This document shows positions 7,958 to 42,138 of a DNA stretch of 42,138 bases, piece by piece. The translations under genes and the position numbers were made by a program. The DNA comes from a virus (lineage: Duplodnaviria > Heunggongvirae > Uroviricota > Caudoviricetes): IMG/VR virus record IMGVR_UViG_2526164691_000033, positions 1 through 42,138 of that record. One strand, given 5' to 3'. Within the stretch, counting starts at the first letter, position 1; each line of letters begins with the position of its first letter. The notes beneath the pieces were generated by a model that had not been told where the DNA came from, ran no database searches, and saw nothing but the letters and a program-made list of their open reading frames with translations.

Positions 7958-8284
7958 ATGACAAAACTTGGATTCGTGATGAGAGGTCCGGTAAGAAGCG
8001 GAACTCATGCAAAGCGTAGCAAGAGTCGTATTTTTACTGGTAAGGTTGTAGCACGTAAATCAGCTATTGGCTCGTTCAATAGTGAAAATGCGGCATTGCG
8101 CCATATTTTTATCAGCACAAAGCCAAGAGCATCCGCTGATGTGCATACAATGTCTATTCCTATCACAAAGAATATAAAGCGGATAAAAAAGCTCTCATCT
8201 GCAGAATCAAAAGAGATATCTTTCCGCCAGCTTAACTCATTAGAAACGCATATGAAGGAAGAGGAATTCGATGTTTTTGAGTGA
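7958..8284 (+). CDS. hypothetical very basic protein (cargo island)
   Basis: GGAG 12 nt upstream; 108 aa, K/R-rich; AT-rich by eye; no recognisable domain. Confidence 0.4.
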   Translation: MTKLGFVMRGPVRSGTHAKRSKSRIFTGKVVARKSAIGSFNSENAALRHIFISTKPRASADVHTMSIPITKNIKRIKKLSSAESKEISFRQLNSLETHMKEEEFDVFE

Positions 8285-8783
8285 GTATAGCGGGAAGGTT
8301 ATACCTACTGGTGAGTTTAAAACTGATGACTTTCTGATTTCGCTAAAAGATGCTTTTAAACAACACTGGCGTCATGGTCATCATCCTGATCTGGGAAAAG
8401 ATACTCTTTTTGAAAGACCAGACGAAGTATTAGGCTTCCATCTCAGAAAGGTTCATGTCAATATTGGTGAATATGCATCATATTCATACTCATGTACTGA
8501 ACAGTGTTGGGATGAGTGGTCATATGGATTGATTGATGAACAAGGAAATTACAGGCCAAAACCAACCAGTAACGCATATCTCATATATGCAGTCAATGAA
8601 ATAAGAGATGCAGCCTTACTAGCTTATTGGGACCCGCCCGCACACACCAAAGCTAACGCAAAAGTTTGGATGGATTCCGTATTGAATTTCACAAAATTAT
8701 TTCATGAACGAACGAATACAGCCCCACTTAGTAGAAATGTTTATCCGTGGGATTATTCGTACAAATCCAAAAAGCCTGCATAG
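8271..8783 (+). CDS. hypothetical protein, 170 aa, His/aromatic-rich (cargo island)
   Basis: GGAAGAGGA before ATG; overlaps upstream ORF by 14 nt (translational coupling); no recognisable domain. Confidence 0.5.
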   Translation: MFLSEYSGKVIPTGEFKTDDFLISLKDAFKQHWRHGHHPDLGKDTLFERPDEVLGFHLRKVHVNIGEYASYSYSCTEQCWDEWSYGLIDEQGNYRPKPTSNAYLIYAVNEIRDAALLAYWDPPAHTKANAKVWMDSVLNFTKLFHERTNTAPLSRNVYPWDYSYKSKKPA

Positions 8784-8864
8784 TAGTTTTTTATGGACGA
8801 AACAAAAGTCAGTGCTACACTCATTGACGCCACATTGAGGTGGCTTATAGATGGAAATGTCACA

Positions 8865-9026
8865 ATGAAAAAAGCATTTGCTGCACTGTTCGTTTTGTTG
8901 TCTCTGGTAGCTTCAACTCAGGCCTTTGCCGGTCGTTGTCAGCACGACAGCGATACTGCCGCTGACGGCTCCCGCTGCGGTGGGCGTTCTGCGGATTCCC
9001 GCCCGGGCGGCGGTGGCATTCGTTAA
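8865..9026 (+). CDS. small secreted peptide (about 31-aa mature, two Cys), hypothetical
   Basis: MKKAFAALFVLLSLVASTQAFA then GRCQHDSDTAADGSRCGG...; start chosen so the signal peptide is N-terminal; the GC-rich 3' part could instead be RNA structure. Confidence 0.35.
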   Translation: MKKAFAALFVLLSLVASTQAFAGRCQHDSDTAADGSRCGGRSADSRPGGGGIR

Positions 9027-9031
9027 AAACA

Positions 9032-9049
9032 AGGCCGCGAAAGCGGCCT
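9032..9049. terminator. GC hairpin AGGCCGC-GAAA-GCGGCCT between convergent genes
   Basis: 7-bp GC-rich stem with GAAA tetraloop; A-run upstream. Confidence 0.45.
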
Positions 9050-9062
9050 GTGACATGTCACG

Positions 9063-9512
9063 CTACTTGCGAAATCTTTCTTTACCCTTCCAGCCAGTAG
9101 ATGTTAGTTCAGGATGAATGGTTCCCAATATAAAGCCAACCATAGCGGAGCGAGGATCTTCTATTTTATCCGTTAATTCTTCGGCATAACTCACAGGCAA
9201 CCAAGCAACAAGATCACCAATCCTCAGCTTTGGTCCTTTGCTGTAAGATGAATCGGCAATAACAAAAAATCCACCATCAGCTGAGCACACCTTCAGCATT
9301 GCCCTTTGTCTTCCAGAATCTAGCAAAACTGGCTGTTCCCCACTTGGACCAGGTATGATGATGGCTGGCATTGGTTTATTGGCTGAAAGGCTTGTGTCAA
9401 GATACTTACACGCATACTCAAAAGCTGAAAAGTTATCCTTAAAGATAAGAGGTTGAATTTTATTGCTAACCTCCTTACCACCGATTAATCTGTTGATCAT
9501 CTTCTTGAACAT
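9063..9512 (-). CDS. hypothetical cytoplasmic protein (cargo island)
   Basis: 149 aa from ATG with AGGTGA 6 nt upstream; no recognisable domain. Confidence 0.45.
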   Translation of the reverse strand: MFKKMINRLIGGKEVSNKIQPLIFKDNFSAFEYACKYLDTSLSANKPMPAIIIPGPSGEQPVLLDSGRQRAMLKVCSADGGFFVIADSSYSKGPKLRIGDLVAWLPVSYAEELTDKIEDPRSAMVGFILGTIHPELTSTGWKGKERFRK

Positions 9513-9524
9513 AAAGGTCACCTA

Positions 9525-9965
9525 ATGATTAAGCCGATGCACGCTATTACAGCTACCGTTTTGTTTATCCTACCAATTTTTTCGTTTGCAAACGACATAT
9601 GTTTTAAGAATTTAATAAATGAGGATATGTGTGCACATGCAAACAAAATTGCATCAGAAGCAGGAAAGTCACTTCCCATAAAATTGAATGATAATATGTC
9701 TATTGTTTCAATAAATGCAATACTAAACAAACTTTTAGTTGTAGCGCATCTTAATTACAACAACAGCTATTTATCAAAAGTTTATAATGGTGATGTAACC
9801 TTAGAAAATAAATTAAAGAGTGTAATGCGAAATTATTCAAAATCGAGCATTTGCTCCAACAGGCAAATGAAAGCATTTATTCACCTTGGCGGAGAGATTG
9901 AGTATAGGTATGTATTTAGTGATGGCAATATATTTGATACATACGCCATCACTAATTGTGAATAG
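9525..9965 (+). CDS. hypothetical secreted protein, AT-rich gene (cargo island)
   Basis: 146-codon ORF in markedly AT-rich DNA; N-terminal signal peptide (ITATVLFILPIFSFA); several Cys; stop codon abuts that of the convergent 1129-aa gene. Confidence 0.45.
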   Translation: MIKPMHAITATVLFILPIFSFANDICFKNLINEDMCAHANKIASEAGKSLPIKLNDNMSIVSINAILNKLLVVAHLNYNNSYLSKVYNGDVTLENKLKSVMRNYSKSSICSNRQMKAFIHLGGEIEYRYVFSDGNIFDTYAITNCE

Positions 9966-12900
9966 CTATTTCATCTGCTCTTCAACTTTATTTAGTAACG
10001 GTGATATCGCCCACAGGTTCTGAAAAGGTAGCATTTTACGGACCGCGTGGGTTTGCTGGCTGTCAAATTCTCCGTTAAGTACACCATTCGCAACCGTCGC
10101 GGCATCACCGCCAAGATCAAAGGTAGGACCAAGTAAAGCACCAATAGCATTACGACTCTGAAACCTTGATACCGGAGGCGCACCAAACATCGCGCCAAGA
10201 CCAAACCTACCGCCGCTTATGTTCTCAACGGTATTCAGCGGCTCAGAGAGCCAGCCAAGCATTCCGCCCCGGTCGATCCCCTCTTTCACAAGGTTATTCC
10301 AGCTGTAGTCGATATCGCGACCGCTTAACTTCTGTTTCATCATATAGACCATTGAGCCAAGCGCAATCGTGCCAAGCGCACCAAGATAGAATGCAGCATC
10401 GCCCTGCTGGATACCAGATACTAGCACCCTGTTATGCTGTGCGAAGATAAACGTTTTGAACTGCGTGATCATCTTCCAGCCTTCTTTACTAAAAAACAGC
10501 GGTGTATCACCTACGCCAGGCGTTACAATCACTGAGTCTACATCTTTCAGCACTGCAGACTGGAAAATCTCTCTAGCGAAACGGTCATCCCACAGATGAC
10601 TATGCCCGGTTAACAGCCCGTCCATATCCTCTCCGTGCTTCCCGAATTGCTCCCCGATTCGGCGCAGAACATCTTCATTGATGCCGACCTGTGCCATCTT
10701 CCGCATTTCACTTTTGGAGAGCGTGCCACCAGCAGAAACTTGGCGAGCCGCGTCAAGTATCCTCGACTGCACTATCATCCCGGACCATGATTTAAGTGCG
10801 CTGTTCCACTGATTCATCAGCGTCCAGTTACCGAATTTCTGCGTCATCCAGTTCAGACCTCGCTCAGCGGCGCTTCTCCGGCTATAGGGGTCAGTAAGAT
10901 CCGCTATAGCCTTTGTACGCGTAGACAGGACATAATCAAGCCCAACGGCCATTTCTCGCAAATCCCTGGTTGCAATTTTCACTGAGTCCATATTTTTAAG
11001 CATGCTTACCATTGGTCCGAGAGATTTTCTCAGGCCATGCTGCATCATCGGTCGCATCAGATCAGTTGCAGCGGAGACAGTCATTCCACCAAGCAAACGG
11101 AGGAAGTTAATATTCCTAGCAACTCGCCCGGCACGAACAAAGAAACTGCGTGGATCTTGAGGTGCACCGTAAGTACCAAGCAGTCGATCACGCATAGCCG
11201 TAATATCCCTAATATCAGCCTCCCGTTGCTTCTCAAGAACTGCACGTCGTTTAGGTGTTTTAGCCTCTTTTATTAGCCGGGTATATTCCTCACTAACCTG
11301 ACGGATTTGCTCCCCCATATCTTTACGGCCAAACTGCGCAGTCAGCTCAATTTCTGGTGCCACCTGCCGGAGATAACTTTCCATGATGTAGTTAACATCT
11401 GATTCAAGAAAATCTTCTATACGCTCATCAGGAATAAGCAGCGTTCTGCTTTTAGTGAAACCAGCCCGACCAACGAGTCTCTCTGGGATAATATCGGCTG
11501 GTACAAGCCCGGAAGGTGCGCCTATTATTTTATTCACGATCTCGTCAGCAGCGTCCTCTGCTTCCTCTCGGGATAGAGGCTCCATCTGCTTCAGTGCTCG
11601 TTCGCGGCTTGCATTCAGCCTTGTGGTTGAATTTGCCCGTTTTTGCAGTCGGCGAAGCTCAGAACGATATTTCCGTGGATTATCCAGCAACTCCATATGG
11701 CGCTGATAGACAGGAAGCTCACTCTTTGCCTGCGCTATATCATCAAGGCGTGTTTTAAGGTCAGAGCTTTCTTTCATCATTCTTGCCTGAAGTTTTTCTG
11801 ATGAAGTCTCGGCCAACTCTTTTTCTATTCTTGTAAGACGCGCCTGTGTGTCAGTCTCCTGAGATATAAGCTTATTTCGTTTATCCAGTTCTTCCATGAG
11901 TAGAATTTTTTTACCAGACCATTTCTCCGCTTCAGCGATTTCACTAGCGAGAGCATCAGCGCGCGGTGCCGATTCCTCTGCAGTTTTTAGCAATGAATTT
12001 ATCCTTTCAATTCGCTGACCTGCTTTGTCAGCACCTTTGGCACTAATCCCTTGTATCCAGTTGGCAATTCGCCCTCTGAATTCAGTGCGGTCGGAAAGTA
12101 TCTTATCGAACTTATAAATGCGGGGAAGATAACTTTTCGCCGTCACGACATCGATATCCTCAGGAAGGATCCCCAGTTCCTGCATACGGGCTTTTGTGGT
12201 CTCGAAAATGGGGCGGATTCTGGCAGCTGCTTGTGAAACCTCAGGAATATCACTCTGATCACCACGGCGCATAGCCATGCCAACAGCTTCATTGAAATCA
12301 ATAAAGTTCATCCTCTTCACGCCGCGGGCGCTAACAGATTTGCTGTACTGCTGGTAAGCATCACGAGTGGCTTCCATCTGCTTATAAAGCATGGCGTCGT
12401 ATTGCTTAATCTTAGTCTCGACTGCCGTAAACGTAGCCAACCCCTCATCATTTTTGGCGAAGAAATAGTTATTTTCGGCAAGCTGCTGGTTAATCTGACG
12501 GGAGACAAGAGATGGTGATTGAGCCAAGCGGCCAGCAGGAGTGACACTCAACGTTTTGTTAGCAAGTCCAAGTCCAGCGAGCTGTTCCTGATCGAGTGTG
12601 GTATTGAAAACCTGAGCTGCACCAATGCTTTGAGGAGAATCCATACCTCGCAAATGATTACCTACTGAGTTAACCACTGCCTCGCGCGCGCTAGGTCCAG
12701 CAAGTAGCTGTGCACCAGCACCAAGGATCCCACCAACGAGAGCATCAACAACAACGTTCGATACGCTCTCCATCGGTGAGCGAGCTTCCTGAGTGGCCTG
12801 TAATGCGGCTTCTGATACTCCCCCACCAGCAGCATTCGCCAGGGCAAAACGCCCTGCCGTCTCAGCAATACTTCCTCCACGCGCTACCGCCCCTACAGGG

Positions 12901-13355
12901 ATGAACATTGCAGCCACATTAACCGGGTCTATCATTCCCATTGCTAAGCTTGAAATAGTACCAGCACCACCCATTTCAGATAGATATTCTCTATCTGTTC
13001 TTTGCTTATCGATTCGATGTTTAATTGCCATTGTTTCTTCATGCGAACCGGAGTTGATAAACGAATCTGCAAAATCTTCATAGCCTTTAATATCTGCTGC
13101 ATCGTTATCAAATGGGTTATATCCTTCAACCCTGTCAAACTGACTGAAAGGAGCACTGGCAATAAAGCTACCCAGCGTGTTATCTATACGAAATGCTGCT
13201 TGTCTAGACCTTTGAACGCGTTGATCACTGGTAAATGGGTTCACAGCAGAAAGCAAAGAAGGTGTTTCCATATAGAAATTACTGTCATCAGGTGCTGCTA
13301 TTTGCTGAATATCCTCGCCAAGCAACTCTTTAGGATCCTGTTCATATATCGGCAT
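9966..13355 (-). CDS. large internal virion / ejection protein (1129 aa)
   Basis: Very large ORF in the virion operon, same position as T7 gp16-like or P22 ejection proteins; no catalytic motif recognised. Confidence 0.55.
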   Translation of the reverse strand: MPIYEQDPKELLGEDIQQIAAPDDSNFYMETPSLLSAVNPFTSDQRVQRSRQAAFRIDNTLGSFIASAPFSQFDRVEGYNPFDNDAADIKGYEDFADSFINSGSHEETMAIKHRIDKQRTDREYLSEMGGAGTISSLAMGMIDPVNVAAMFIPVGAVARGGSIAETAGRFALANAAGGGVSEAALQATQEARSPMESVSNVVVDALVGGILGAGAQLLAGPSAREAVVNSVGNHLRGMDSPQSIGAAQVFNTTLDQEQLAGLGLANKTLSVTPAGRLAQSPSLVSRQINQQLAENNYFFAKNDEGLATFTAVETKIKQYDAMLYKQMEATRDAYQQYSKSVSARGVKRMNFIDFNEAVGMAMRRGDQSDIPEVSQAAARIRPIFETTKARMQELGILPEDIDVVTAKSYLPRIYKFDKILSDRTEFRGRIANWIQGISAKGADKAGQRIERINSLLKTAEESAPRADALASEIAEAEKWSGKKILLMEELDKRNKLISQETDTQARLTRIEKELAETSSEKLQARMMKESSDLKTRLDDIAQAKSELPVYQRHMELLDNPRKYRSELRRLQKRANSTTRLNASRERALKQMEPLSREEAEDAADEIVNKIIGAPSGLVPADIIPERLVGRAGFTKSRTLLIPDERIEDFLESDVNYIMESYLRQVAPEIELTAQFGRKDMGEQIRQVSEEYTRLIKEAKTPKRRAVLEKQREADIRDITAMRDRLLGTYGAPQDPRSFFVRAGRVARNINFLRLLGGMTVSAATDLMRPMMQHGLRKSLGPMVSMLKNMDSVKIATRDLREMAVGLDYVLSTRTKAIADLTDPYSRRSAAERGLNWMTQKFGNWTLMNQWNSALKSWSGMIVQSRILDAARQVSAGGTLSKSEMRKMAQVGINEDVLRRIGEQFGKHGEDMDGLLTGHSHLWDDRFAREIFQSAVLKDVDSVIVTPGVGDTPLFFSKEGWKMITQFKTFIFAQHNRVLVSGIQQGDAAFYLGALGTIALGSMVYMMKQKLSGRDIDYSWNNLVKEGIDRGGMLGWLSEPLNTVENISGGRFGLGAMFGAPPVSRFQSRNAIGALLGPTFDLGGDAATVANGVLNGEFDSQQTHAVRKMLPFQNLWAISPLLNKVEEQMK

Positions 13356-16102
13356 TATTTGCCCCCTGCGTATATATTGCTCGGAAGGTAATTGGCTGAA
13401 CCATAACCGAATGGTTTGGTCAGATCTGGAGGAGTATATCCATCTTTATTGCTGAACTGCGGCAGCGGATTGCCTTCTCTCCGCACTCTAGCCTCATCAA
13501 CACGCTGTTGCTGGAACTGAATGGTTTGCCTGTACATTGGAGATGTCAGCTGATCCGGCTTGAAACGAACAGGGAGACCATTTTCTCCAATATAATTTCT
13601 CGGTTCTATCGCTCCGTTTGCGTCAGGCTGTAAAACCATAACAGCATAACTCCTATCCCTTGCCGTAAGGCCATCAGAAACAAGTATTAAGTCCGTATCA
13701 CTGCGAGGACCGCCAAAGGATTTTGATTTAAGCTCGCGTTTTTCCTGCTCCCACTGCCCCTGTATCCAGTTACCAGCACCATTATTTACTCCGTACAATG
13801 CCTCAGGTGCATACTTCATAACCTCTGCTTTGCCATTAACCGTAGAAACTCCCCAGGTGGTTCTGATCATGGCATTGGTCATTTTCTCAGCCTGTTCTGC
13901 ATCGCCACCTGTCTGTACAAAGTTAGCATCGTAAATTGTCTGGTAATCTCGCTGATAGGCCGCATTTGATTTTCCTGGATCGGTAATATCCGGAGACCAC
14001 GAACCAAAGGAAGTCAGACTGCTGGCGTTATTTTGTGCAGCAGTTGCCCTCGCCGCGACATATTTTTTGTCTCGCATGGCAGTGGAAAGCATCTGTTTCA
14101 TTCGGTCATCCTGTTGGAACACCTGGCTGTAAGCCATATCAACAGCCTTATCCTCCGGCACGCCAGCGCGGGAATAATCGTAAACCTTGCCGTAAAATGC
14201 CATCGTACTTTTATCAAGTGTTGCCGCTGCCGCCGGATTATTATCGAATAACTGACCGTAGAATTTTGCCATCGGGACAACCAGCTCAGGATCTCTTGAT
14301 GTTGCTCCACTGTTAAGCATTGTTTTAACCTGAGTTGGTATCATGCCGCTTTTAGTTGTGACGGTGACCAGTGTATTGATGCTCTGCGGATCAGATATGG
14401 AAAACGAAGGCGCGATATCCTGCGCGAAATAACGGTCTACCGCTGCCTGATTGTTTTTGTCGTTCGGGTCCAGCGGGAAGTTATTTTGCATTGAAGACAC
14501 GAACCTGTTTCTTCCCTGCTGAATCTCCCACTCCCTATCCATCTCTTTAAATTTGGCCTGCATTTTCTCCCAGCGTTGCTGGTTAGCTGCAAATCCAGGA
14601 GCGTTTGGATCCTGTGGACGTAAACGTTCAAGAATGTCTTGTCGTCCTTCTGGAGTGAGGTCTTTAGCGGCACCAATGACACCTCCATATTGTATCTGCG
14701 CCTGCATATCCTTCCACTTCATAGCGCCAATGCGCGGACCATTGGCCCGGATAAAATCGTCCTCAGAAGGTAACTTCTCAGGTTTCAATCCTTCATCAAG
14801 GGCTGAATATGCATCTTTAACTACGGTGCTAAGCTGGTCCGCATACTGCTGGCGGTACTGATTTCTCAGCTCATTAGCCTGCCTCAATGCCTGTATTTGC
14901 ATTTGAGGGCTCATAGCATCAAATGCCGCATTGCCCGTATAACGCTTAGGTGAATCAAGGTTAGTTAGACCAAGGGCTGCCGAGATACCAGTTTCAAGCT
15001 GTTCGGTGCTATAAGGCATACTGCCATTTTCGTGTTTAATAATCCCAGCACATAAAGCAGCTAGTGTCTTTGGGTTAGAGATATCAAGCTGATCATTCTC
15101 CCCAACACCAAGCTCACCACACAATGCCCTAATATAAGCATCAGTATTATTACCATCACTAGCCGGAGCATAGCGATTAACAATCTCGCTAACGGTGTCA
15201 TAGCCTTGACGCTGGTAAGACAACATATTTTTACCCAACGCGCGGATTCCATGCTCAGGGGTAGCAAACGTTGCAAAACGTCCATCGCTACCGATCTGAC
15301 CTTCCCACGGGTTAGATTTGCTCGCTTCAATATTACCAGGATTATTATTACGTAAACCACGAGCATCCAATGAATTACCATGTGATATTGCACGACTCAC
15401 ACCATCAAGATCACCTGGCTCTCCATTAACCTGAAGAAACTCGTTGTATTTTTGAGCGATATTTCCTATCCATGCTTGCTGCCCCATTTGTTCCTTGAGC
15501 TGAGTTTTCTGCTGAACACGCCACTCATCAGGAAGCCCATGCGCATCAGCGTATTGATCAATAGATTCAAATCGCTGCTTGGCTAAATCGACAAATGCTT
15601 GGTTATCGCTATATAGCCCCGCAGACTGAGTGACAGCCAATGCATTTCCTGACAAATACGTTTGATCTTGGAATTGCTGAAACTGCCCAACTTCATATCG
15701 ACGTGCCTGATTGTAATAAGACTGCATAGACTGCTGGAGTTGAAAGGATAATTTATTCCTTTCCTCACTTTCAGGAATTGAGCCTAATAATGCCTGAGCC
15801 CTTTCCTGCATATTTTTCATAACAGCGTCACTCTGACCAAGAGCGTTTTTACCCTGTTTAGAAATCAGCCCACTTTCAGGGTTGTTAATCTGGTCATCTG
15901 CAAATTGGTTAAATTGCAGTAACGCCTCCTGGGCCATAGCAACATTCGCTTTCTGCCTGGCTTCACCATATGCCACCGCATACTGATCTGCGACATTCGC
16001 CAGCACCTGACCTGCTTGAGGAACATCGAAGGTCTGAAAACCACCGGTTTGCACACCACGACTTTGCACCTGGCGTCCGGATGTAGTAGGAACAACTGGC
16101 AT
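13355..16102 (-). CDS. large internal virion / ejection protein (915 aa)
   Basis: Large ORF coupled head-to-tail to neighbours; central conserved-looking block LRNNNPGNIEASKSNPWEGQIGSDGRFATF may be an enzymatic domain (unverified). Confidence 0.55.
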   Translation of the reverse strand: MPVVPTTSGRQVQSRGVQTGGFQTFDVPQAGQVLANVADQYAVAYGEARQKANVAMAQEALLQFNQFADDQINNPESGLISKQGKNALGQSDAVMKNMQERAQALLGSIPESEERNKLSFQLQQSMQSYYNQARRYEVGQFQQFQDQTYLSGNALAVTQSAGLYSDNQAFVDLAKQRFESIDQYADAHGLPDEWRVQQKTQLKEQMGQQAWIGNIAQKYNEFLQVNGEPGDLDGVSRAISHGNSLDARGLRNNNPGNIEASKSNPWEGQIGSDGRFATFATPEHGIRALGKNMLSYQRQGYDTVSEIVNRYAPASDGNNTDAYIRALCGELGVGENDQLDISNPKTLAALCAGIIKHENGSMPYSTEQLETGISAALGLTNLDSPKRYTGNAAFDAMSPQMQIQALRQANELRNQYRQQYADQLSTVVKDAYSALDEGLKPEKLPSEDDFIRANGPRIGAMKWKDMQAQIQYGGVIGAAKDLTPEGRQDILERLRPQDPNAPGFAANQQRWEKMQAKFKEMDREWEIQQGRNRFVSSMQNNFPLDPNDKNNQAAVDRYFAQDIAPSFSISDPQSINTLVTVTTKSGMIPTQVKTMLNSGATSRDPELVVPMAKFYGQLFDNNPAAAATLDKSTMAFYGKVYDYSRAGVPEDKAVDMAYSQVFQQDDRMKQMLSTAMRDKKYVAARATAAQNNASSLTSFGSWSPDITDPGKSNAAYQRDYQTIYDANFVQTGGDAEQAEKMTNAMIRTTWGVSTVNGKAEVMKYAPEALYGVNNGAGNWIQGQWEQEKRELKSKSFGGPRSDTDLILVSDGLTARDRSYAVMVLQPDANGAIEPRNYIGENGLPVRFKPDQLTSPMYRQTIQFQQQRVDEARVRREGNPLPQFSNKDGYTPPDLTKPFGYGSANYLPSNIYAGGK

Positions 16103-19606: not shown

Positions 19607-20214
19607 CAGGACAACCTCGCAATGGTAAACTCGTCAACCGGTGGCTGTGGTTCCTGTGATTCATTCTGGCTATGCGAACCAGCACTAAGAATCACGCGAT
19701 TGTACATATTGAGAGCAAATGTACCGAGATCCGCATTCCCAGTCAGCGCCATGTTAATGGCTGCCGCAAGACGCCAGGCCAGCGCCTCCATAAAAATGGC
19801 ATCAAACATGTTCACATCTGAAACGCGAGAGACATACTTGAGCCATGCCTGCGGCTGGTCTGTATAGATCAATTTTCCTGTTCCGTTGGTGTCTGCACCA
19901 ACTTCGTACTGAACGCGCATTGCTGCTGTTGGATTGCGTACACCAGGAAGCATAATTTCAGTAATGCGCAGACAATCGGACGGGTACTGGTACGCATATT
20001 CCCAGTCAGGCGGTGGATTGCTCGTATCTGCAAGCGCCACGCGTTTGGTAGCAAAGTTCCAGTCAAAATCAGAAAGCACAGCATCACGGCAGGCCTCAAA
20101 GTGCAGCGAACATTCCCCCGCTTCCTTGCTGGCTTCCGTCAGGCTGTTAATGCTGCGGCTATTGCCAATATTGGACAGCGCACGATTACAGATCTCTACT
20201 ACAGAGGCCATCAC
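19606..20214 (-). CDS. tail tubular protein A-like (202 aa)
   Basis: Size and synteny with the downstream 821-aa gene. Confidence 0.45.
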   Translation of the reverse strand: MMASVVEICNRALSNIGNSRSINSLTEASKEAGECSLHFEACRDAVLSDFDWNFATKRVALADTSNPPPDWEYAYQYPSDCLRITEIMLPGVRNPTAAMRVQYEVGADTNGTGKLIYTDQPQAWLKYVSRVSDVNMFDAIFMEALAWRLAAAINMALTGNADLGTFALNMYNRVILSAGSHSQNESQEPQPPVDEFTIARLS

Positions 20215-21368: not shown

Positions 21369-21419
21369 CTTCTTTCTCCATTAGTGGGTCTGTTACGACC
21401 CACAGGTTAATAACAGGCG

Positions 21420-25739: not shown

Positions 25740-25816
25740 GTGGCATTAGCTCAGTTGGACAGAGCAACCGCCTTCTAAGCGGTTGGTCGCAGGTTCGAAT
25801 CCTGCATGCCACGCCA
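25740..25816 (+). tRNA. tRNA-Arg (anticodon UCU)
   Basis: 77 nt; 7-bp acceptor stem GTGGCAT/ATGCCAC; D-loop AGCTCAGTTGGACAGAGC; anticodon stem ACCGC/GCGGT with loop CTTCTAA (anticodon TCT); T-arm GGTTCGAATCC; discriminator G and CCA encoded. Confidence 0.85.
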
Positions 25817-33618: not shown

Positions 33619-34419
33619 TTACTTGATAAATCCTGCCGCCTTTCCCCGCCTGTATTCCTCCATCAGCCACTGCGCCGGTGTTATTCCCCCAAGGGTGGCG
33701 GCGTTAGGCATGCACCCGAAACTTCGCCCTGGCGGGTGGTAAACGTCTCTCCCTGTGTCCGGAGGTGTACTCATGGGTTCTGGCTTTGCCTGTATGCTGA
33801 TCACCGGATCGGGTATCTGCTGTCCGGAAGCCACCTTTTTCGCCCAATCATCGAGCAGCCTGCGCGCGTGTTTCTCAACCTCAATCTCGCTAAGCTGGCG
33901 CTGATACATTGCACGGCGGGTATCACATACGACCCAGTACATAACCGGATGTCGCCACGGGAATCTTTCGGGACCGCCAGGATATAAACTTTTTTCCTTG
34001 CTGTACCGGTGAAACTCCGCCATCACATCGTCAATGGTGACGCCAAGAACCATCTTGCTGTCTTTGCACCACTTGATGAATTGCCCTGGCGACGGCCAGA
34101 ACGGAGATTCACTGGCGCGGGCGTGGCGCATACCAGCAGAAACCTGTTCACGGGTTCGGATCCCCCCTTCAGCAAACGCAGCAATCCACTGCTGTTTTGC
34201 AGCAACTTCCTGCTCTGGCGTCTTCAGGTTGGTTACCACTGCCGCCGGAAACAGTTGTTTCAACTGTTTGAAAAGGGCATCAACAAGCCTCTCTGCTGAC
34301 ATGTTCACTACGTTGTCATTGTTGGTGTACTGATGCTCATAACCTGACATGCGAGAAAGGGCTTCTCCGTCACGGTTTTGTATCGCGGTAAAAACGTTGT
34401 TCACAAGAAATCCTCCCAT
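33619..34419 (-). CDS. replication protein P-like (helicase loader)
   Basis: Block GGIRTREQVSAGMRHARASESPFWPSPGQFIKWC parallels lambda P (NGITTMEQVNAGMRVARRQNRPFLPSPGQFVAWC, from memory); true start may be internal. Confidence 0.7.
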   Translation of the reverse strand: MGGFLVNNVFTAIQNRDGEALSRMSGYEHQYTNNDNVVNMSAERLVDALFKQLKQLFPAAVVTNLKTPEQEVAAKQQWIAAFAEGGIRTREQVSAGMRHARASESPFWPSPGQFIKWCKDSKMVLGVTIDDVMAEFHRYSKEKSLYPGGPERFPWRHPVMYWVVCDTRRAMYQRQLSEIEVEKHARRLLDDWAKKVASGQQIPDPVISIQAKPEPMSTPPDTGRDVYHPPGRSFGCMPNAATLGGITPAQWLMEEYRRGKAAGFIK

Positions 34420-35234
34420 GCTTCAGGGCTGTTCCAGTGCGGAACGTTGTTATCAGGTAATGTTGATTGCTTCTGTCTGCTAATCTGCAGCCGCCTTGCC
34501 AGCTTCTGCTCCCACTGTGCCTGATGGTATGCCTTACCCTCAGCCATCCAGTAAATTCTGAACTCTGCAAGTTCCTGTGCCGTTGGCAGACTGTCCAGGT
34601 AGATCCCCTGCAATGAGCTTTTCCGAAGAAAGTCATCTGATGGTTGCCATTGTTCATGCATGACAAATTTGCCTAATTGCCCTGGCCCACCAGGAGGAAC
34701 AAAGTTATTCATCACGGCGTTGTTTGCGCCGGGGTCATGAGGCACAGAATTCCCGGTTTTTGTCCTGCTCTCCCTCTCTTGGTTAAATGACTGGTTATAT
34801 GACTGGTTCTGGATCCCGTTTTTGGGATCATTCAACATCCCGTTTTTGGGATCATTCAACATCCCGTTTTTGGGTATATTCCCGTTTTCGGGAACATTAC
34901 CGTTTTCGGGAACATTACCGTTTTCGGGTTCATTACACCCATCTAGGTTGCCTTTAATGTTCCCTTTTTTGGTTATATTAAGAGAGAAAACCCGCACTCT
35001 TTTTGTCGCTCCCTTTCTCTCTCCGGTATCTGAAATAAGCCCCATTTTCATGAGCGATATAAGCCCGGCCTGCACGGTTTTTTTATTCAGGCAAGTGTCT
35101 TTAACGAGGCGTTCTATGCTGGGGTGGCAGAGGTTATATTCATTGGCTCTGTCAGCCATCGAGAGCAGTATGAGCTTTAATGATGAGCTACCTGGATCTG
35201 TCCCCCAGGCCCAATCTGTTGCATGTCTGCTCAT
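34401..35234 (-). CDS. replication initiator O-like protein with in-gene origin iterons
   Basis: N-terminal HTH-like domain; central repeated peptides PENGNV x3 and MLNDPKNG x2 encoded by DNA iterons; directly upstream of the P-like gene. Confidence 0.65.
   Translation of the reverse strand: MSRHATDWAWGTDPGSSSLKLILLSMADRANEYNLCHPSIERLVKDTCLNKKTVQAGLISLMKMGLISDTGERKGATKRVRVFSLNITKKGNIKGNLDGCNEPENGNVPENGNVPENGNIPKNGMLNDPKNGMLNDPKNGIQNQSYNQSFNQERESRTKTGNSVPHDPGANNAVMNNFVPPGGPGQLGKFVMHEQWQPSDDFLRKSSLQGIYLDSLPTAQELAEFRIYWMAEGKAYHQAQWEQKLARRLQISRQKQSTLPDNNVPHWNSPEAWEDFL
34814..34936. repeat. origin iterons (6 direct repeats, 18-24 bp period) inside the O-like gene
   Basis: Repeats of tcattcaaca-tcccgtttttggg and cattac-cgttttcggga; followed by a moderately AT-rich stretch. 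Confidence 0.6.
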
Positions 35235-35599: not shown

Positions 35600-35830
35600 T
35601 CATGAGTAGAAGAAGTATGCCAGTTCTGCTTTTGAGCGCAGCCATTGTCTTGTTTTACAGGCTTTAAAAAGCCCATTCATCAATACCTTACCTGGCATTT
35701 TGCGCTTACCTGTTAAGTGAGTCTGGATATAGTGACTCGTCGTTCCGGCTTCCTGTGCGAAGGCTTCACGCTCATCCGGAGTAAGTGCAAGCCAGTGCTT
35801 TTTGAAATCGAAATGTCCGTTATCGCTCAT
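35600..35830 (-). CDS. Cro/CII-like HTH regulator
   Basis: 76 aa, divergent from the repressor gene; HTH-like segment EAFAQEAGTTSHYIQTHLTG. Confidence 0.5.
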   Translation of the reverse strand: MSDNGHFDFKKHWLALTPDEREAFAQEAGTTSHYIQTHLTGKRKMPGKVLMNGLFKACKTRQWLRSKAELAYFFYS

Positions 35831-35897
35831 AGCTATTGCCTGATATTTATTTCAGATAATAAATATTCACCCATAAGGTAACAAAAATCAAGGATAG

Positions 35898-35929
35898 TTA
35901 CCTATGGGGTGCATTTACCTGTTGGGTAA
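35898..35929. promoter_or_regulatory. OR-like operator pair
   Basis: TTACCTATGGGGTGC (imperfect) and TTACCTGTTGGGTAA (perfect), 3 bp apart, between the divergent cro-like and repressor genes. Confidence 0.55.
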
Positions 35930-35984
35930 TATTGCTTTAAATTGAATCATCTACTGATTCATATATGAGGCGATTTTCCAGAAA

Positions 35985-36569
35985 ATGAAAAGTATCCAGG
36001 ACGTCCGCAGGCAAAATCTCAACGACTTGATCGACCGTGAATTCAATGGTGTTCAGACGCGGATGGCAGAAAAACTTGGAACTCAGGCAAATCTGGTAAA
36101 CCGCTGGGCTCTTGGCAAGAAGGTTATCGGCGACCAGGTTGCGCGAAAAATTGAAGCTGCCGCCAATAAACCCCGTAACTGGCTTGATATCGATCGCTCG
36201 CTTTCTCAGGAAGGTTTTCAGCCTGTCGGCCCAAGCGACATTGGTCAGCTAGCGGCTCACAACCTGGAACGCTGGATGAGCGAAAGCCGCGACCTTTCAA
36301 CACAGGGAAAACTTCACCGCGCATCCGGCGTAGCCCAGGTGACAATCAGCCGCCTGTTAAACAATGAGGTCAGCGTTTCCATTTCCACCCTGGAGAATGT
36401 TGCATCCGCATTCGGGCGTCATGGCTATGAATTACTGATTCACCCGCATGACCCTGCGACCATCAACTATGACCGCTCGCGCTACGCATTGTTACCCGAA
36501 ACCGAGAAAGCAAAGATCGAAAGTTACATTGAATTTGTCATCAACCAGAACGAAAAAAACAAACAATAA
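35985..36569 (+). CDS. prophage repressor with two XRE-type HTH domains and no S24 peptidase domain
   Basis: HTH 1 about residues 20-60 (QTRMAEKLGTQANLVNRWALGKKVIGDQVARKIEAA); HTH 2 about residues 110-150 (ASGVAQVTISRLLNNEVSVSISTLENVASAFG); no Ala-Gly / Ser-Lys autocleavage signature seen. Confidence 0.65.
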   Translation: MKSIQDVRRQNLNDLIDREFNGVQTRMAEKLGTQANLVNRWALGKKVIGDQVARKIEAAANKPRNWLDIDRSLSQEGFQPVGPSDIGQLAAHNLERWMSESRDLSTQGKLHRASGVAQVTISRLLNNEVSVSISTLENVASAFGRHGYELLIHPHDPATINYDRSRYALLPETEKAKIESYIEFVINQNEKNKQ

Positions 36570-36590
36570 AATCATATTTTTCAGTAAGTA

Positions 36591-36615
36591 AGCCGCCTTC
36601 TGGCGGCTTTTTTTA
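36591..36615 (+). terminator. rho-independent terminator after repressor gene
   Basis: AGCCGCC-TTCT-GGCGGCT followed by TTTTTTT. Confidence 0.6.
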
Positions 36616-36627
36616 TTGCCTATACGA

Positions 36628-36703
36628 TTACCTGACGGGTAATTTTTTAACTCATATCTATTGACATCAAACCAAATACGCATAATCATTACCTCAAAGG
36701 TAA
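36628..36703. promoter_or_regulatory. OL-like operator pair with promoter
   Basis: TTACCTGACGGGTAA (36628-36642) and TTACCTCAAAGGTAA (36689-36703); TTGACA at 36661-36666 between them. Confidence 0.55.
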
Positions 36704-36877: not shown

Positions 36878-37177
36878 ATGAACGTTAATCAGCAGAAAAA
36901 TCTTCAAAAAATCATGCTGGCATTCGACAAGGACTACCGCCTGTCAGAACAGCTATATGACCGACAAGTTGAACTGATTGAGAGTATCCGGCTTCATCAA
37001 CTGGCATCAACTTTCGACGTTGTAACAGTTAAAGGCGTTCGCCAGGAAGTACTGGAGGCCGCTAAAGACAGCCCTGAGTTCGAAGAACTAATGGATGCCT
37101 ACCGGCGCGAGGCAATGGCAATTATCGCCCGCTGGGATCTGGCTGATCAGATTGATGGGCAGAGGGACGCGGCATGA
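36878..37177 (+). CDS. hypothetical early protein
   Basis: GGGAGGG RBS; 99 aa; overlaps the exonuclease gene start. Confidence 0.45.
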   Translation: MNVNQQKNLQKIMLAFDKDYRLSEQLYDRQVELIESIRLHQLASTFDVVTVKGVRQEVLEAAKDSPEFEELMDAYRREAMAIIARWDLADQIDGQRDAA

Positions 37178-37995
37178 ATCAGGGAATTTATTTCGATATC
37201 AGCAACGAGGACTACCACGCCGGTGACGGCGTGAGTAAGTCGCAGCTAGATATGGTGGCTAAGAACCCTGCCCTTCTGAAATGGGTGAAGGCTGCTCCGG
37301 AAGACGAAGAGAAGAAGTCTGCACTGGACATTGGTACTGCTCTGCACTGTCTGCTTCTGGAACATGGAGAGTTTGACAAACGCTTCATCGTTTCACCGAA
37401 ATTCGATCGTCGGACAAAACAAGGTAAAGCTGACGAAGAGGCATTTCTTCGTGATGTGGCGGATATGGGGATTTCGGTACTTGATGCAGAGCAGTGGCGG
37501 AAACTGGAGCTGATGCGTGATAGCGCAATGGCTCACCCGGCGGCACGCTGGATGTTGGAAGCACCTGGTTACTGCGAAGCATCAATGTACTGGAACGATG
37601 AAGAGACGGGTGAGTTGTGCCGAATTCGTCCAGACAAATGGCTGAACGAGCACAACGTGATCGTCGACGTGAAAAAGGTTGCAGATATGGACCGTTTTGC
37701 ACGCCACATCGAGGAATTCCGCTACCACGTGCAGGACGCAATGTACCGCGAAGGCGCAATGAGGGTTACTGGTCAGCCGCATGGTTTTTTCTTTCTTGCC
37801 GTGAGCGAAAGCATTGATTGTGGTCGGTATCCGGTACGCGTGTTCGAGCTGGATGCGCCGGATGTCGATGCCGGGCACGCTCTGTTCCGCCGGGATCTGA
37901 ATACCTATCACGAATGCCGCATCAACGATGAATGGGGCGGAGTGGAAATTATTAAACGCCCTGACTGGGCACGTAAACAGGATATGTACATATGA
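37174..37995 (+). CDS. RecE-like PD-(D/E)XK exonuclease
   Basis: Motif IRPDKW...VIVDVKKV consistent with PD-(D/E)XK; directly upstream of and coupled to the RecT-like gene. Confidence 0.65.
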   Translation: MNQGIYFDISNEDYHAGDGVSKSQLDMVAKNPALLKWVKAAPEDEEKKSALDIGTALHCLLLEHGEFDKRFIVSPKFDRRTKQGKADEEAFLRDVADMGISVLDAEQWRKLELMRDSAMAHPAARWMLEAPGYCEASMYWNDEETGELCRIRPDKWLNEHNVIVDVKKVADMDRFARHIEEFRYHVQDAMYREGAMRVTGQPHGFFFLAVSESIDCGRYPVRVFELDAPDVDAGHALFRRDLNTYHECRINDEWGGVEIIKRPDWARKQDMYI

Positions 37996-38873
37996 GCAAT
38001 GATATCGCAATCACATCACAACCAGGCGCAACTGTAGGCACTGCTGCGGCAATCTTCAGCCCCGAGGGCATGAATCAACTGGTGCGTTTCGCGGAGTTGA
38101 TGTCACAAAGCAAAGCGACTGTACCGAAACATCTTGAAGGCAAACCTGCCGATTGCCTGGCGGTGACCATGCAGGCGGCACAGTGGGGAATGAACCCTTT
38201 CGCCGTGGCGCAGAAAACGCATGTGGTAAACGGAACGTTAGGCTACGAAGCACAGTTGGTAAACGCGGTCGTATCCTCTTCCAGCCTGCTGGCGACACGC
38301 CTGAATTATCGCTGGAGCGGCGACTGGTCGAATGTTAACGGCAAAACAGATAAATCACCGAATCTGACGGTAACTGTGTCAGCAGTTCTTAAAGGAGAAG
38401 CAGAACCCCGTGAGCTTACCATCAGTATGGCGCAAGCCGGAGTGCGTAACTCTCCATTGTGGGAACAGGATCCGCGCCAGCAACTTGCCTATCTTTGCAC
38501 GAAACGATGGGCTCGCCTGCACGCTCCTGATGTACTTCTCGGTGTTTACACCCCAGACGAATTACAGGAAACGGCACCGCGCGTTGAGAGAGACATTACT
38601 CCGCAAACGACCACTGCTGCGGGAATGAACAGTCTGATCAACGCTAAACCAGCGAAAAAGCCTGATGAGCAAACGCGTAAAGCGGATAGCCGTGATCCAG
38701 AAGAAATGCTGATGGCCTTTACCAGCGCAGCGATGAATTACAGCACTGTCTCCGAACTGGATAAGGCTTACAAATACATTGCACAAAAACTTTCAGATGA
38801 TGACGAACTGCTGGCAAAAGCCACCGACGTTTACAGCGTTCGTCGGGAAGAATTAAACGAAACATCTATGTAA
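37992..38873 (+). CDS. RecT-like single-strand annealing recombinase
   Basis: 293 aa; position after exonuclease; sequence character (...AQWGMNPFAVAQKTHVVNGTLGYEAQL...) typical of RecT/Redbeta family. Confidence 0.6.
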   Translation: MSNDIAITSQPGATVGTAAAIFSPEGMNQLVRFAELMSQSKATVPKHLEGKPADCLAVTMQAAQWGMNPFAVAQKTHVVNGTLGYEAQLVNAVVSSSSLLATRLNYRWSGDWSNVNGKTDKSPNLTVTVSAVLKGEAEPRELTISMAQAGVRNSPLWEQDPRQQLAYLCTKRWARLHAPDVLLGVYTPDELQETAPRVERDITPQTTTAAGMNSLINAKPAKKPDEQTRKADSRDPEEMLMAFTSAAMNYSTVSELDKAYKYIAQKLSDDDELLAKATDVYSVRREELNETSM

Positions 38874-40881: not shown

Positions 40882-42138
40882 TTATTTATTACTGTCTTCC
40901 ATCCACCTCTCAAACTTCGACGGGGAGAACGGAATCAGATCCGTATGCTCCCCATTAATCCAGGAATCAATCATATCGGCCCACTGCTGCAACATGTAGG
41001 CGCGCTGTCTGGCGTATTCCGCTTTGTTATATACGGCGCGCACACCTTTCTGCTCATGTGCCAGAGCCTTTTCAATCCAGTCTGAAGGATAACCAGCCTC
41101 ATGCAACAACGTACTGGCTGTACGGCGCATATCATGTACAGTGAAGTCCTGAATATGCTCACCATCTTCATTTATTATTTTCACCGTTCTGTCGATCAGA
41201 GAGTTCAGCGCGGCATTAGATAATGGCTTCCGGAAGTTGTAACGACCAGGAACCAGATATTCACTTCCACCAGCGCACATCTGCAACCCGACCAATATAT
41301 CCTGTGCCTGTTTAGGCAGGTAAATAACATGCGCCCGGCTTCCCTTCATGCGGTCTGAAGGAATTGTCCATGTCCATTTTTTAAAATCTATTTCGTCCCA
41401 CGTTGCATTGGTGAATTCGCCTTTACGAACCATAGTGATAAGCACCAGCTTTAAAGCCATTTTCATAGTGCCCATAGCACCAATGGCATCCAGCGTGCGG
41501 AAGAACAGGCCAATTTCTTCTGGCGTCAGTGTTCGCTCTCGTGGTTTAAATATGGCGATAGACGAAGGTTTAATGTCAGCCGCAGGATTAAACAAACCAT
41601 GACCACGGTCATTGGCGTGACGGTATACGCTGCTGATGATCTCCCTGGCCTGCACTGCTGTTGCCCGACCACCGCGTTCGACAATCCGGTCACACAAATC
41701 ACGAACCATCGATGTGGTAATTTCAGTCATCATTTTGTTGCCAAGAACCGGAAGTATGTCACGGTCGATCACCGCCTGCTTCATTGCGCGGGTACTGTCA
41801 GCCAGGATGACATGTTTCATATAACTGTCGGTATGTACCGCAAACGTCTCGGCACCACGAATCTTTTTGATGCCGTCACGTTTAGCCGCAGCCGGTGACT
41901 GGCCTGCTTTAAGCAGCTTCTTTGCAGCAATCAGTTCTTCTCGCGCTTCTGCCAGGCTGATACCGTCACGCCCATACTGCCCGATTACCAGTGTTTCGCG
42001 GCGACCGTTGATACGGTAGTCATAGCGAAACGAGACCGTGCCTGACGTAAGCACAGCTACATACAGCCCGTCACGATCGGAGACCTTGTACAGTTTGTCC
42101 TGTGGCTTGAGGTTCTTTAATTTTGTATCGGTAAGCAC
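40882..42138 (-). CDS. int: tyrosine integrase, P4-type (N-terminal DUF4102-like arm-binding domain); possibly 5'-truncated by window edge
   Basis: N-terminus LTDTKLKNLKPQDKLYKVSDRDGLYVAVLTSGTVSFRY typical of P4-family integrases; C-terminal region with HxxR and catalytic Tyr context (AHVIYLPK...HDMRRT...ALAHE); ORF begins at the last codon of the window. Confidence 0.8.
   Translation of the reverse strand: MLTDTKLKNLKPQDKLYKVSDRDGLYVAVLTSGTVSFRYDYRINGRRETLVIGQYGRDGISLAEAREELIAAKKLLKAGQSPAAAKRDGIKKIRGAETFAVHTDSYMKHVILADSTRAMKQAVIDRDILPVLGNKMMTEITTSMVRDLCDRIVERGGRATAVQAREIISSVYRHANDRGHGLFNPAADIKPSSIAIFKPRERTLTPEEIGLFFRTLDAIGAMGTMKMALKLVLITMVRKGEFTNATWDEIDFKKWTWTIPSDRMKGSRAHVIYLPKQAQDILVGLQMCAGGSEYLVPGRYNFRKPLSNAALNSLIDRTVKIINEDGEHIQDFTVHDMRRTASTLLHEAGYPSDWIEKALAHEQKGVRAVYNKAEYARQRAYMLQQWADMIDSWINGEHTDLIPFSPSKFERWMEDSNK

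Follow-up and report, generated by a model that had tools for sequence, protein, structure and literature searches.

The window analyzed here covers positions 1 to 42,138 of IMG/VR virus record IMGVR_UViG_2526164691_000033, a 42,138-nucleotide stretch of caudoviricete DNA. The gene of interest is rep (35985..36569, + strand), which codes for a lysogeny repressor of 194 amino acids. Sequence comparison identifies the window as a phiV10-like prophage (Uetakevirus, an epsilon15-like podophage) inserted at guaA. Nearly all phiV10 proteins are collinear with the window, and the surroundings of rep are 96-98% identical to those of phiV10, ZX5, PAS61, TL-2011b and other phages. The rep open reading frame (ORF) is genuine. 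It starts with ATG, its product finds 100% identical counterparts by tblastn and matches PDB chain 5D50_A at E 4e-42, and its N-terminal MKSI is invariant among 40 homologues. No rep promoter was found by a consensus scan of the + strand at 35885-35984, and the start codon is not preceded by a recognizable Shine-Dalgarno sequence. A hairpin with the characteristics of an intrinsic terminator follows the gene (36590..36609, + strand) and is annotated as a terminator in phiV10. On the other side of rep lies a divergent cro-like gene (35600..35830, - strand). Its 76-amino-acid product is 100% identical to phiV10 p41 and matches phrog_35, 'transcriptional repressor', at E 5.6e-13.

Both halves of Rep carry helix-turn-helix (HTH) signatures. 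When compared with Pfam, the whole protein matches HTH_3 (XRE family, PF01381) at E 1.2e-9 and 38.5 bits in two stretches, the better of which covers residues 106-147. YdaS_toxin, a Cro-like HTH family, matches residues 21-61, with HTH_3 and YdaS_toxin spanning residues 21-67, and HTH_26 and LacI-type HTH matches are located in the second half of the protein. Residues 1-82 scanned alone give 15.9 bits for HTH_3 (E 0.014) and 20.4 bits for YdaS_toxin, whereas residues 83-194 alone give 25.7 bits for HTH_3, 24.9 bits for HTH_26 and 25.6 bits for LacI. The gathering threshold of HTH_3 is 23 bits, which is passed by the whole protein and by the second domain alone; the first domain alone falls below it. 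NCBIfam returns only sub-threshold matches (RstR, with 19.7 bits where 80 are required, HigA and TreR). The two halves yield no BLASTP alignment with each other at E<=100, and on this ground a recent tandem duplication of the HTH folds was rejected.

The AlphaFold2 model of Rep, built from a 40-sequence alignment (mean predicted local distance difference test score, pLDDT, of 75), contains two helical bundles and a smaller third module. The first bundle (residues 4-73) has five helices, at 4-19, 24-31, 35-43, 50-59 and 66-73, and corresponds to an N-terminal XRE/Cro-type HTH domain (residues 1-73; 35985..36203, + strand). Confidence is low between the bundles (residues 65-82, pLDDT<50), where we place a flexible linker whose length and sequence differ among homologues (residues 74-84; 36204..36236, + strand). 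The second bundle (residues 85-151) also has five helices, at 85-100, 107-114, 118-125, 133-142 and 147-151, with pLDDT values of 81-87, and forms a second XRE-type HTH fold (residues 85-152; 36237..36440, + strand). The last 40 or so residues (about 153-194; 36441..36566, + strand) comprise an extended segment followed by a long helix at 172-193. Invariant positions in this C-terminal module, as judged from the homologue alignment, are I160, Y162, D163, L170, K175, K177, I178, I182, F184 and Q188.

A preliminary description of this locus had placed two HTH units at about residues 20-60 and 110-150 of a single 194-residue chain, and both ranges agree with the Pfam scans of the halves and with the model. 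Its proposal that the second region folds as an HTH is likewise borne out by the five-helix bundle at 85-151 and the HTH_3 score of 25.7 bits. The two-domain architecture that it drew was correct for the two HTH folds and incomplete beyond them, as the third module at about 153-194 had been missed.

The same three modules are present in a protein of known structure. PDB entry 5D50_A ('Repressor', 199 amino acids) is matched by phmmer at E 4e-42, with residues 1-190 of Rep aligned to residues 2-197, and 5D4Z, which covers residues 92-198 of the crystallized protein, is matched at E 4e-20 in a search of PDB sequences. These entries represent the Rep protein of Salmonella phage SPC32H, in complex with its antirepressor and alone. 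When the C-terminal half of our model is superimposed on 5d4z_H by Foldseek, the target-normalized template modeling score is 0.80 and the root-mean-square deviation is 2.6 A. The next Foldseek matches are ordinary XRE regulators (NHTF 3VK0, SinR, ClgR and DdrO). Rep is 42% identical to SPC32H Rep over its full length by tblastn, and identity by domain is 51% in the N-terminal domain, 32% in the middle domain and 49% in the C-terminal domain.

One later article (PMC9986798), in summarizing the work on SPC32H Rep, divides the protein into an N-terminal DNA-binding domain, a middle dimerization domain (MDD) and a C-terminal CAD, and it assigns both tetramerization and binding of the antirepressor (Ant) to the CAD. 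By homology, residues 85-152 of the window protein represent the MDD, and residues 153-194, which align to 5D4Z and 5D50, represent the CAD. As summarized in a second article (PMC9638917), SPC32H Rep is a tetramer on DNA and the dimer binds weakly, and the pair of DNA-binding domains on each palindrome is drawn from different dimers. According to this article, two Rep dimers are bound by one tetramer of Ant, which breaks the Rep tetramer. Domain roles in this protein are also given in a preprint (bioRxiv 10.1101/2025.11.27.690993).

The preliminary description had also proposed a search for HTH_XRE and Peptidase_S24 domains, predicting that the latter would be missing. As reported above, HTH domains occur in both halves of Rep, and Pfam finds no match to Peptidase_S24 (PF00717) either in the whole protein at E<=1 or in each half at E<=10. 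An identical scan readily detects Peptidase_S24 in other proteins that share the N-terminal domain of Rep. Because it has no Peptidase_S24 domain with a Ser/Lys dyad, Rep is not, by this domain test, an autocleavable repressor of the LexA/CI type. Kim and Ryu reportedly found in 2013 that the SPC32H repressor is not cleaved, and that it is inactivated by a LexA-controlled antirepressor. A later article cites Kim & Ryu 2013 as a case in which LexA cleavage leads to production of an antirepressor, which then inhibits the repressor through protein-protein contact (PMC7380047).

The likely binding site of Rep is a 15-bp palindrome, TTACC-N5-GGTAA, that occurs in perfect form nine times in the window (0 expected) and with at most two mismatches 39 times (11.8 expected). 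Three predicted operators are located between the cro-like gene and rep. The first, TCACCCATAAGGTAA (35867..35881), was found by a pattern search and lies between the -35 and -10 elements of a leftward, cro-side promoter predicted by a consensus scan (TTGTTA-17-TATTAT, 35884->35856, - strand); it has an equal position in five phages. The second, TTACCTATGGGGTGC (35898..35912), has two mismatches to the palindrome, and its position is kept in Tyrion, BUCT711, epsilon15 and SPC32H. The third, TTACCTGTTGGGTAA (35915..35929), has perfect palindrome arms and is centered 17 bp from the center of the second. Two further predicted operators were found by pattern search on the other side of rep. One of these, TTACCTGACGGGTAA (36628..36642), is downstream of the rep terminator, and the other, TTACCTCAAAGGTAA (36689..36703), abuts the -10 element of a rightward early promoter predicted by the promoter scan (TTGACA-17-AATCAT, 36661-36689, + strand). 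The operators at 36628 and 36689 flank and abut the promoter of an early operon that leads into exo and recT.

These sites have a conserved geometry. Operators of Tyrion, BUCT711, epsilon15 and SPC32H are found at equal offsets from the start of rep, namely at about -118, -87 and -70 bp on one side and about +643 and +704 bp on the other. In addition, the GenBank record of epsilon15 annotates sites homologous to the downstream operators as 'protein_bind: repressor'. The half-site is common to the window and these four phages, and the Rep proteins of the five phages are 42-78% identical.

Rep-type palindromes that are perfect or have one mismatch also occur outside the immunity region, at 3191, 6460, 6840, 7901, 25403, 28545, 28563, 33505, 33567 and 35530. 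They mark most of the transcription-unit boundaries. Examples are located upstream of the lysis cassette, in the gap that separates ant from the tail fiber gene, ahead of the head genes, at terS, in the interval from the replication genes to the DUF1064 gene, and beyond the cro-like terminator. A similar scatter is seen in SPC32H. This distribution suggests direct repression by Rep throughout the genome or looping mediated by the Rep tetramer.

The gene for a putative antirepressor, ant (6551..6808, + strand), codes for 85 amino acids. Its product matches PDB chain 5D50_E, 'Anti-repressor protein', at E 1.4e-46 and is 98.8% identical to phiV10 p24, and the product of SPC32H ant (annotated at 19676-19936) matches window positions 6554-6802 with 87% identity by tblastn. 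GenBank records call this small protein 'hypothetical', and PHROGs lists it under 'unknown function'. A LexA box, CTGTATATTTATACAG (6514..6529), ends 22 nucleotides before the ant start codon and is conserved in phiV10 and SPC32H. With its flanks, TACTGTATATTTATACAGTT, it agrees with the E. coli consensus at 18 of 20 positions. A predicted Rep-type operator, TTACCTTTCAGGTGA (6460..6474), is located upstream of the ant promoter region and is also conserved in phiV10 and SPC32H. The bare pattern CTGT-N8-ACAG has three matches in the window against 0.59 expected, which is not clearly above chance. Those at 21390 and 25932 have G+C-rich centers, the former being located in a coding region and the latter within the p04 ORF, and we take both as chance occurrences rather than LexA boxes.

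We put the probability at about 85% that Rep is a lysogeny repressor of the SPC32H/epsilon15 type, with three modules and inactivation by an antirepressor. The features established here are the domain content, the absence of S24, the homology of Rep and Ant to crystallized proteins, the LexA box and the conserved operator geometry. For the oligomeric state, the domain that touches DNA, the mode of Ant action and the absence of cleavage, the model draws on the homologue and the literature. Residues 1-73, as a symmetric pair of identical domains, would read TTACC-N5-GGTAA. Residues 85-152 would act as a dimerization domain and not as a second reading head, and residues 153-194 would join two dimers into a tetramer and also provide the docking site for the antirepressor. 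Such a tetramer would present two pairs of N-terminal domains and could hold two operators at once, among the three that lie over or beside the cro-side promoter and the two at the early rightward promoter. Upon DNA damage, LexA would leave the box at 6514-6529 and the 85-residue Ant would be made. Ant would then bind the C-terminal module of Rep and break the tetramer, such that the N-terminal domains come off the DNA without any cleavage of the chain.

The preliminary description had argued that inactivation must occur by antirepression, and homology to SPC32H Rep together with the ant homologue behind a LexA box in the window points the same way. It had also tied the LexA-box gene and the operators into one circuit. 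The presence of ant, the LexA box at 6514-6529 and the TTACC-N5-GGTAA sites flanking rep supports a model where this gene, the repressor and the operators indeed form a single circuit.

Several characteristics of the two HTH folds bear on which of them reads DNA. The first domain is basic (net charge +5, isoelectric point 10.3), whereas the second has a net charge of -1 and an isoelectric point of 6.2. In the five phages with invariant TTACC half-sites, helix 3 of the first fold reads xNLVNRW throughout, and the canonical specificity positions in helix 3 of the second fold vary (QV..S, QN..S, QA..N and PA..N). The half-sites are exact inverted repeats, and therefore two identical reading heads are called for. 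Moreover, a search for Rep domains that covered 1.84 billion representatives revealed that the N-terminal domain recurs in proteins of 220-252 amino acids (P0131, P0159, P0163 and P0176), where it is fused directly to Peptidase_S24. This fusion identifies the domain as the head with which classical CI-type repressors bind DNA, and by the same comparison the S24 domain for oligomerization and cleavage is replaced in Rep by a unit made of an HTH fold plus CAD. On these four grounds, and by homology with SPC32H Rep, we infer that the N-terminal HTH is the operator-reading domain. The case cautions that the domain which reads DNA may not be the one whose HTH signature passes the threshold, since in Rep the weaker-scoring HTH is the putative binder.

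Some observations weigh against this assignment. Canonical HTH_3 residues are still present in the second HTH (Q107, Q118, T120 and R123), and for this reason some residual affinity for DNA is conceivable. Free-standing relatives of the C-terminal half of Rep have this HTH as their sole HTH. Also, Rep is only 42% identical to the crystallized protein, and only 32% in the middle domain.

These observations raise the possibility that the second HTH fold dimerizes and also binds DNA, either with a second specificity or as a non-specific clamp. This fold passes the Pfam threshold for HTH_3 and outscores the inferred DNA-binding domain, its canonical Q/Q/T/R positions are invariant or nearly so throughout the family, and homologues composed of this HTH plus CAD exist without any other HTH. 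However, published structural work gives the fold a role in dimerization (PMC9986798), its net charge is negative, and the basic tails of many free-standing relatives could provide their affinity for DNA. No second conserved motif turned up beside the operators, although none was searched for. We therefore regard a DNA-binding role for the second HTH as distinctly unlikely. Were it active, each Rep tetramer would have eight heads in contact with DNA and two specificities among them, and the published model for SPC32H would have to be revised.

The free-standing proteins deserve a brief description. They are 93-165 amino acids long and are homologous to residues 85-190 of Rep only, with an XRE HTH followed by a strand-helix CAD (P0102, P0105, P0109, P0110, P0113, P0119, P0120 and others). 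Most have a disordered C-terminal tail with a terminal basic patch, and some have a basic N-terminal extension instead. Such contigs as were found for them (loci L006-L008) are 0.8-2.9 kb in length. Since homologues exist in which this is the sole HTH, the second HTH and CAD of Rep probably derive from an autonomous regulator, and Rep resembles a complete small XRE regulator to which a DNA-binding head of the CI type has been fused. That the captured, once autonomous XRE domain still contacts DNA seems quite improbable.

A different use of the two folds had been suggested in the preliminary description, wherein a single Rep monomer sets its two HTH units on both half-sites of one 15-bp palindrome. 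Each chain does carry two HTH-type folds, and a flexible linker of about 15-20 residues could physically bridge one helical turn. However, nine sites have half-sites that are exact inverted repeats, yet the folds are dissimilar and their helix-3 sequences differ, and a symmetric site would not be selected by two unlike heads in tandem. The charge of the second fold is close to neutral, and its specificity positions vary while the half-site stays constant. In the two articles cited above, the SPC32H homologue binds as a tetramer via its N-terminal domains and the second fold dimerizes (PMC9638917, PMC9986798). Thus, the tetramer biology of the homologue, the dissimilarity of the folds, the helix-3 variation and the charge count all argue against this part of the earlier proposal, and we consider it very unlikely to hold.

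It is hardly credible that a cryptic site in Rep undergoes proteolysis, RecA-stimulated or other, that inactivates the repressor, with Ant as an accessory. Phages with an identical repressor or of the same species are inducible by DNA damage, which does not by itself separate the mechanisms. The chain has no S24 fold or Ser/Lys dyad domain, is fully accounted for by the three 5D50/5D4Z modules, has a linker without an Ala-Gly or Cys-Gly site, and has in SPC32H Rep a homologue that is reportedly uncleaved (Kim & Ryu 2013; PMC7380047).

Returning to the three-module, antirepressor-controlled repressor, much of this picture is on record. Rep is 100% identical by tblastn to phiV10 p40, to vB_EcoP_ZX5 ORF21 and to the products of 11 other phage records. 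The GenBank note on p40 reads 'two helix-turn-helix motifs (Pfam PF01381); similar to putative repressor epsilon15p38', and so the observation of two HTH motifs has been known since the phiV10 genome was annotated. Over-expression of the identical ZX5 ORF21 protein reduced free phage to zero and lowered the transcripts of endolysin and holin by 99.97-99.99% (PMC9782041). The ZX5 lysogen is mitomycin C-inducible, from 10^7 to 10^9 plaque-forming units per mL, and the same paper notes only the C-terminal HTH, makes no mention of SPC32H or LexA, and lists the small Ant as a 'hypothetical protein' (PMC9782041). A prophage of the phiV10 species is induced 21-fold by a DNA-damaging microcin.

The antirepression circuit of Rep is supported here, yet it is already published for the SPC32H/epsilon15-type family. 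As a discovery, the present case therefore has little weight: two HTHs were annotated in phiV10, repression was shown in ZX5, and the family structure and mechanism were published in 2013-2016. Its use is in annotation. Of 5,426 complete E. coli genomes, 537 (about 10%) carry rep at an identity of >=95%, with no annotation other than 'helix-turn-helix domain-containing protein'. Transfer of the SPC32H annotation would mark phiV10-like prophages as SOS-inducible via a LexA-Ant-Rep relay.

A comparison of conservation in the two partners is also informative. Ant is 87% identical between the window and SPC32H, and its target Rep is only 42% identical (49% in the Ant-binding CAD). Judged by these identities, constraint is much tighter on Ant than on Rep, which may allow cross-induction between related prophages.

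A second gene with an Ant domain is located downstream of ant (7124..7834, + strand). It codes for a Bro-N protein of 236 amino acids (Pfam Bro-N, E 9.6e-20) whose C-terminal 80 or so residues represent a second Ant domain, with residues 155-231 matching PDB chain 5D50_E at E 2.2e-13 (phrog_450). The gene is split in phiV10 (p23, 194 amino acids, and p22, 29 amino acids) and intact in the window, HEMP4 and ZX5 (ORF4), and the C-terminal 118 residues of the window protein are about 99% identical to ZX5 ORF4. Over-expression of ZX5 ORF4 lowered prophage numbers about 1000-fold (PMC9782041). The Bro-N::Ant protein could be a second antirepressor that docks on the C-terminal domain of Rep. No LexA box with <=1 mismatch is present before this gene in 6809-7123.

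The interval between ant and the Bro-N::Ant gene contains two Rfam matches at gathering level, one to the Hfq-binding small RNA IsrK (6891-6967, + strand, 67 bits) and the other to C4 antisense RNA (6992-7075, + strand, 66 bits). It also contains a promoter-like site (6812-6840), which is abutted by a perfect TTACC-N5-GGTAA palindrome (6840-6854), and a terminator-like hairpin (6945-6961). The arrangement of ant, small RNA and Bro-N::Ant resembles the P1 immI (c4-icd-ant) and Gifsy-1 isrK-antirepressor modules. By analogy, the second antirepressor may be gated by RNA and controlled by Rep.

Elsewhere in the window, an attachment (att) core, ATTGAGTGGGAATGATT, is found at 1164-1180 (- strand) and represents the junction between prophage and host. 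ZX5 reportedly uses the same core when it integrates at the 3' end of guaA (PMC9782041), and host DNA presumably makes up bases 1-1163. At its opposite end, the window truncates the integrase gene (40900-42138). A module at 7958-16102 is unlike phiV10: p19, p20, p21 and the O-acetyltransferase gene oac have no counterparts, and p18 is only 45% identical. This module holds instead an ORF of 1129 amino acids (9966-13355, - strand) and four small ORFs, which belong to PHROG families of unknown function. One of the small ORFs (8271-8783) has a weak YafO-toxin-like match of 19.7 bits, which is below threshold. The tail fiber (3734-6355) resembles that of phiV10 in its N-terminal half only (50%), and therefore a different O-antigen specificity is implied.

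Other genes differ in organization. The exonuclease (37174-37995) and RecT (37992-38873) are encoded by separate, overlapping ORFs, whereas phiV10 annotates a single RecE-RecT fusion of 586 amino acids. RecT shares only 74% identity with the corresponding part of the phiV10 protein, and the region at 37174-38873 is therefore mosaic. The replication initiator gene (34401-35234, - strand; DnaT/HTH_36 domains, phrog_1032) codes for tandem peptide repeats, NGNVPE three times and NGMLNDPK twice, which are probably encoded by iteron-like origin DNA repeats inside the gene. A phage-borne tRNA-Arg with anticodon TCT (25740-25816, + strand) is also present in SPC32H and ZX5.

The window Rep shows no difference at the protein level from phiV10 p40 and ZX5 ORF21. 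The next closest known systems are SPC32H Rep/Ant and epsilon15 gp38, which share with the window the three-module layout and full-length homology. SPC32H and epsilon15 also have TTACC-N5-GGTAA operators at equal positions on both sides of rep, and in SPC32H the gene for the small Ant (87% identical) likewise follows a conserved LexA box, with rep and ant at equal positions in the Uetakevirus genome. There are differences, however. The window phage resides in E. coli and SPC32H in Salmonella, and the five bases at the center of each operator tend less toward A/T in the window than in SPC32H and epsilon15. Moreover, the window phage has an intact protein with Bro-N and Ant domains, whereas the SPC32H record lists no Bro-N gene.

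Classic repressors of the lambda CI, P22 C2 and LexA type resemble Rep in having an N-terminal XRE-type HTH, and the lysogeny systems have a divergent cro-like gene and operators on both sides. Unlike Rep, they carry Peptidase_S24; Rep, which has no S24, would not undergo autocleavage. By analogy with SPC32H, oligomerization of Rep would rely on an HTH-fold domain and a strand-helix tetramerization module, and induction on an antirepressor. Coliphage 186 CI/Tum and the Gifsy/Fels-2 pairs are closer in logic, in that a LexA-controlled small antirepressor acts by protein contact on a non-cleavable repressor (PMC7380047). However, the proteins of these pairs are unrelated to Rep and Ant. Kim and Ryu are said to have noted in 2013 that an Ant of the SPC32H type is structurally distinct. 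A final parallel is Rco from plasmid pLS20, which combines an N-terminal HTH DNA-binding domain with a C-terminal strand-helix (p53-like) tetramerization domain and is countered by the antirepressor Rap (PMC9986798), but which lacks the middle HTH-fold dimerization domain present in Rep.

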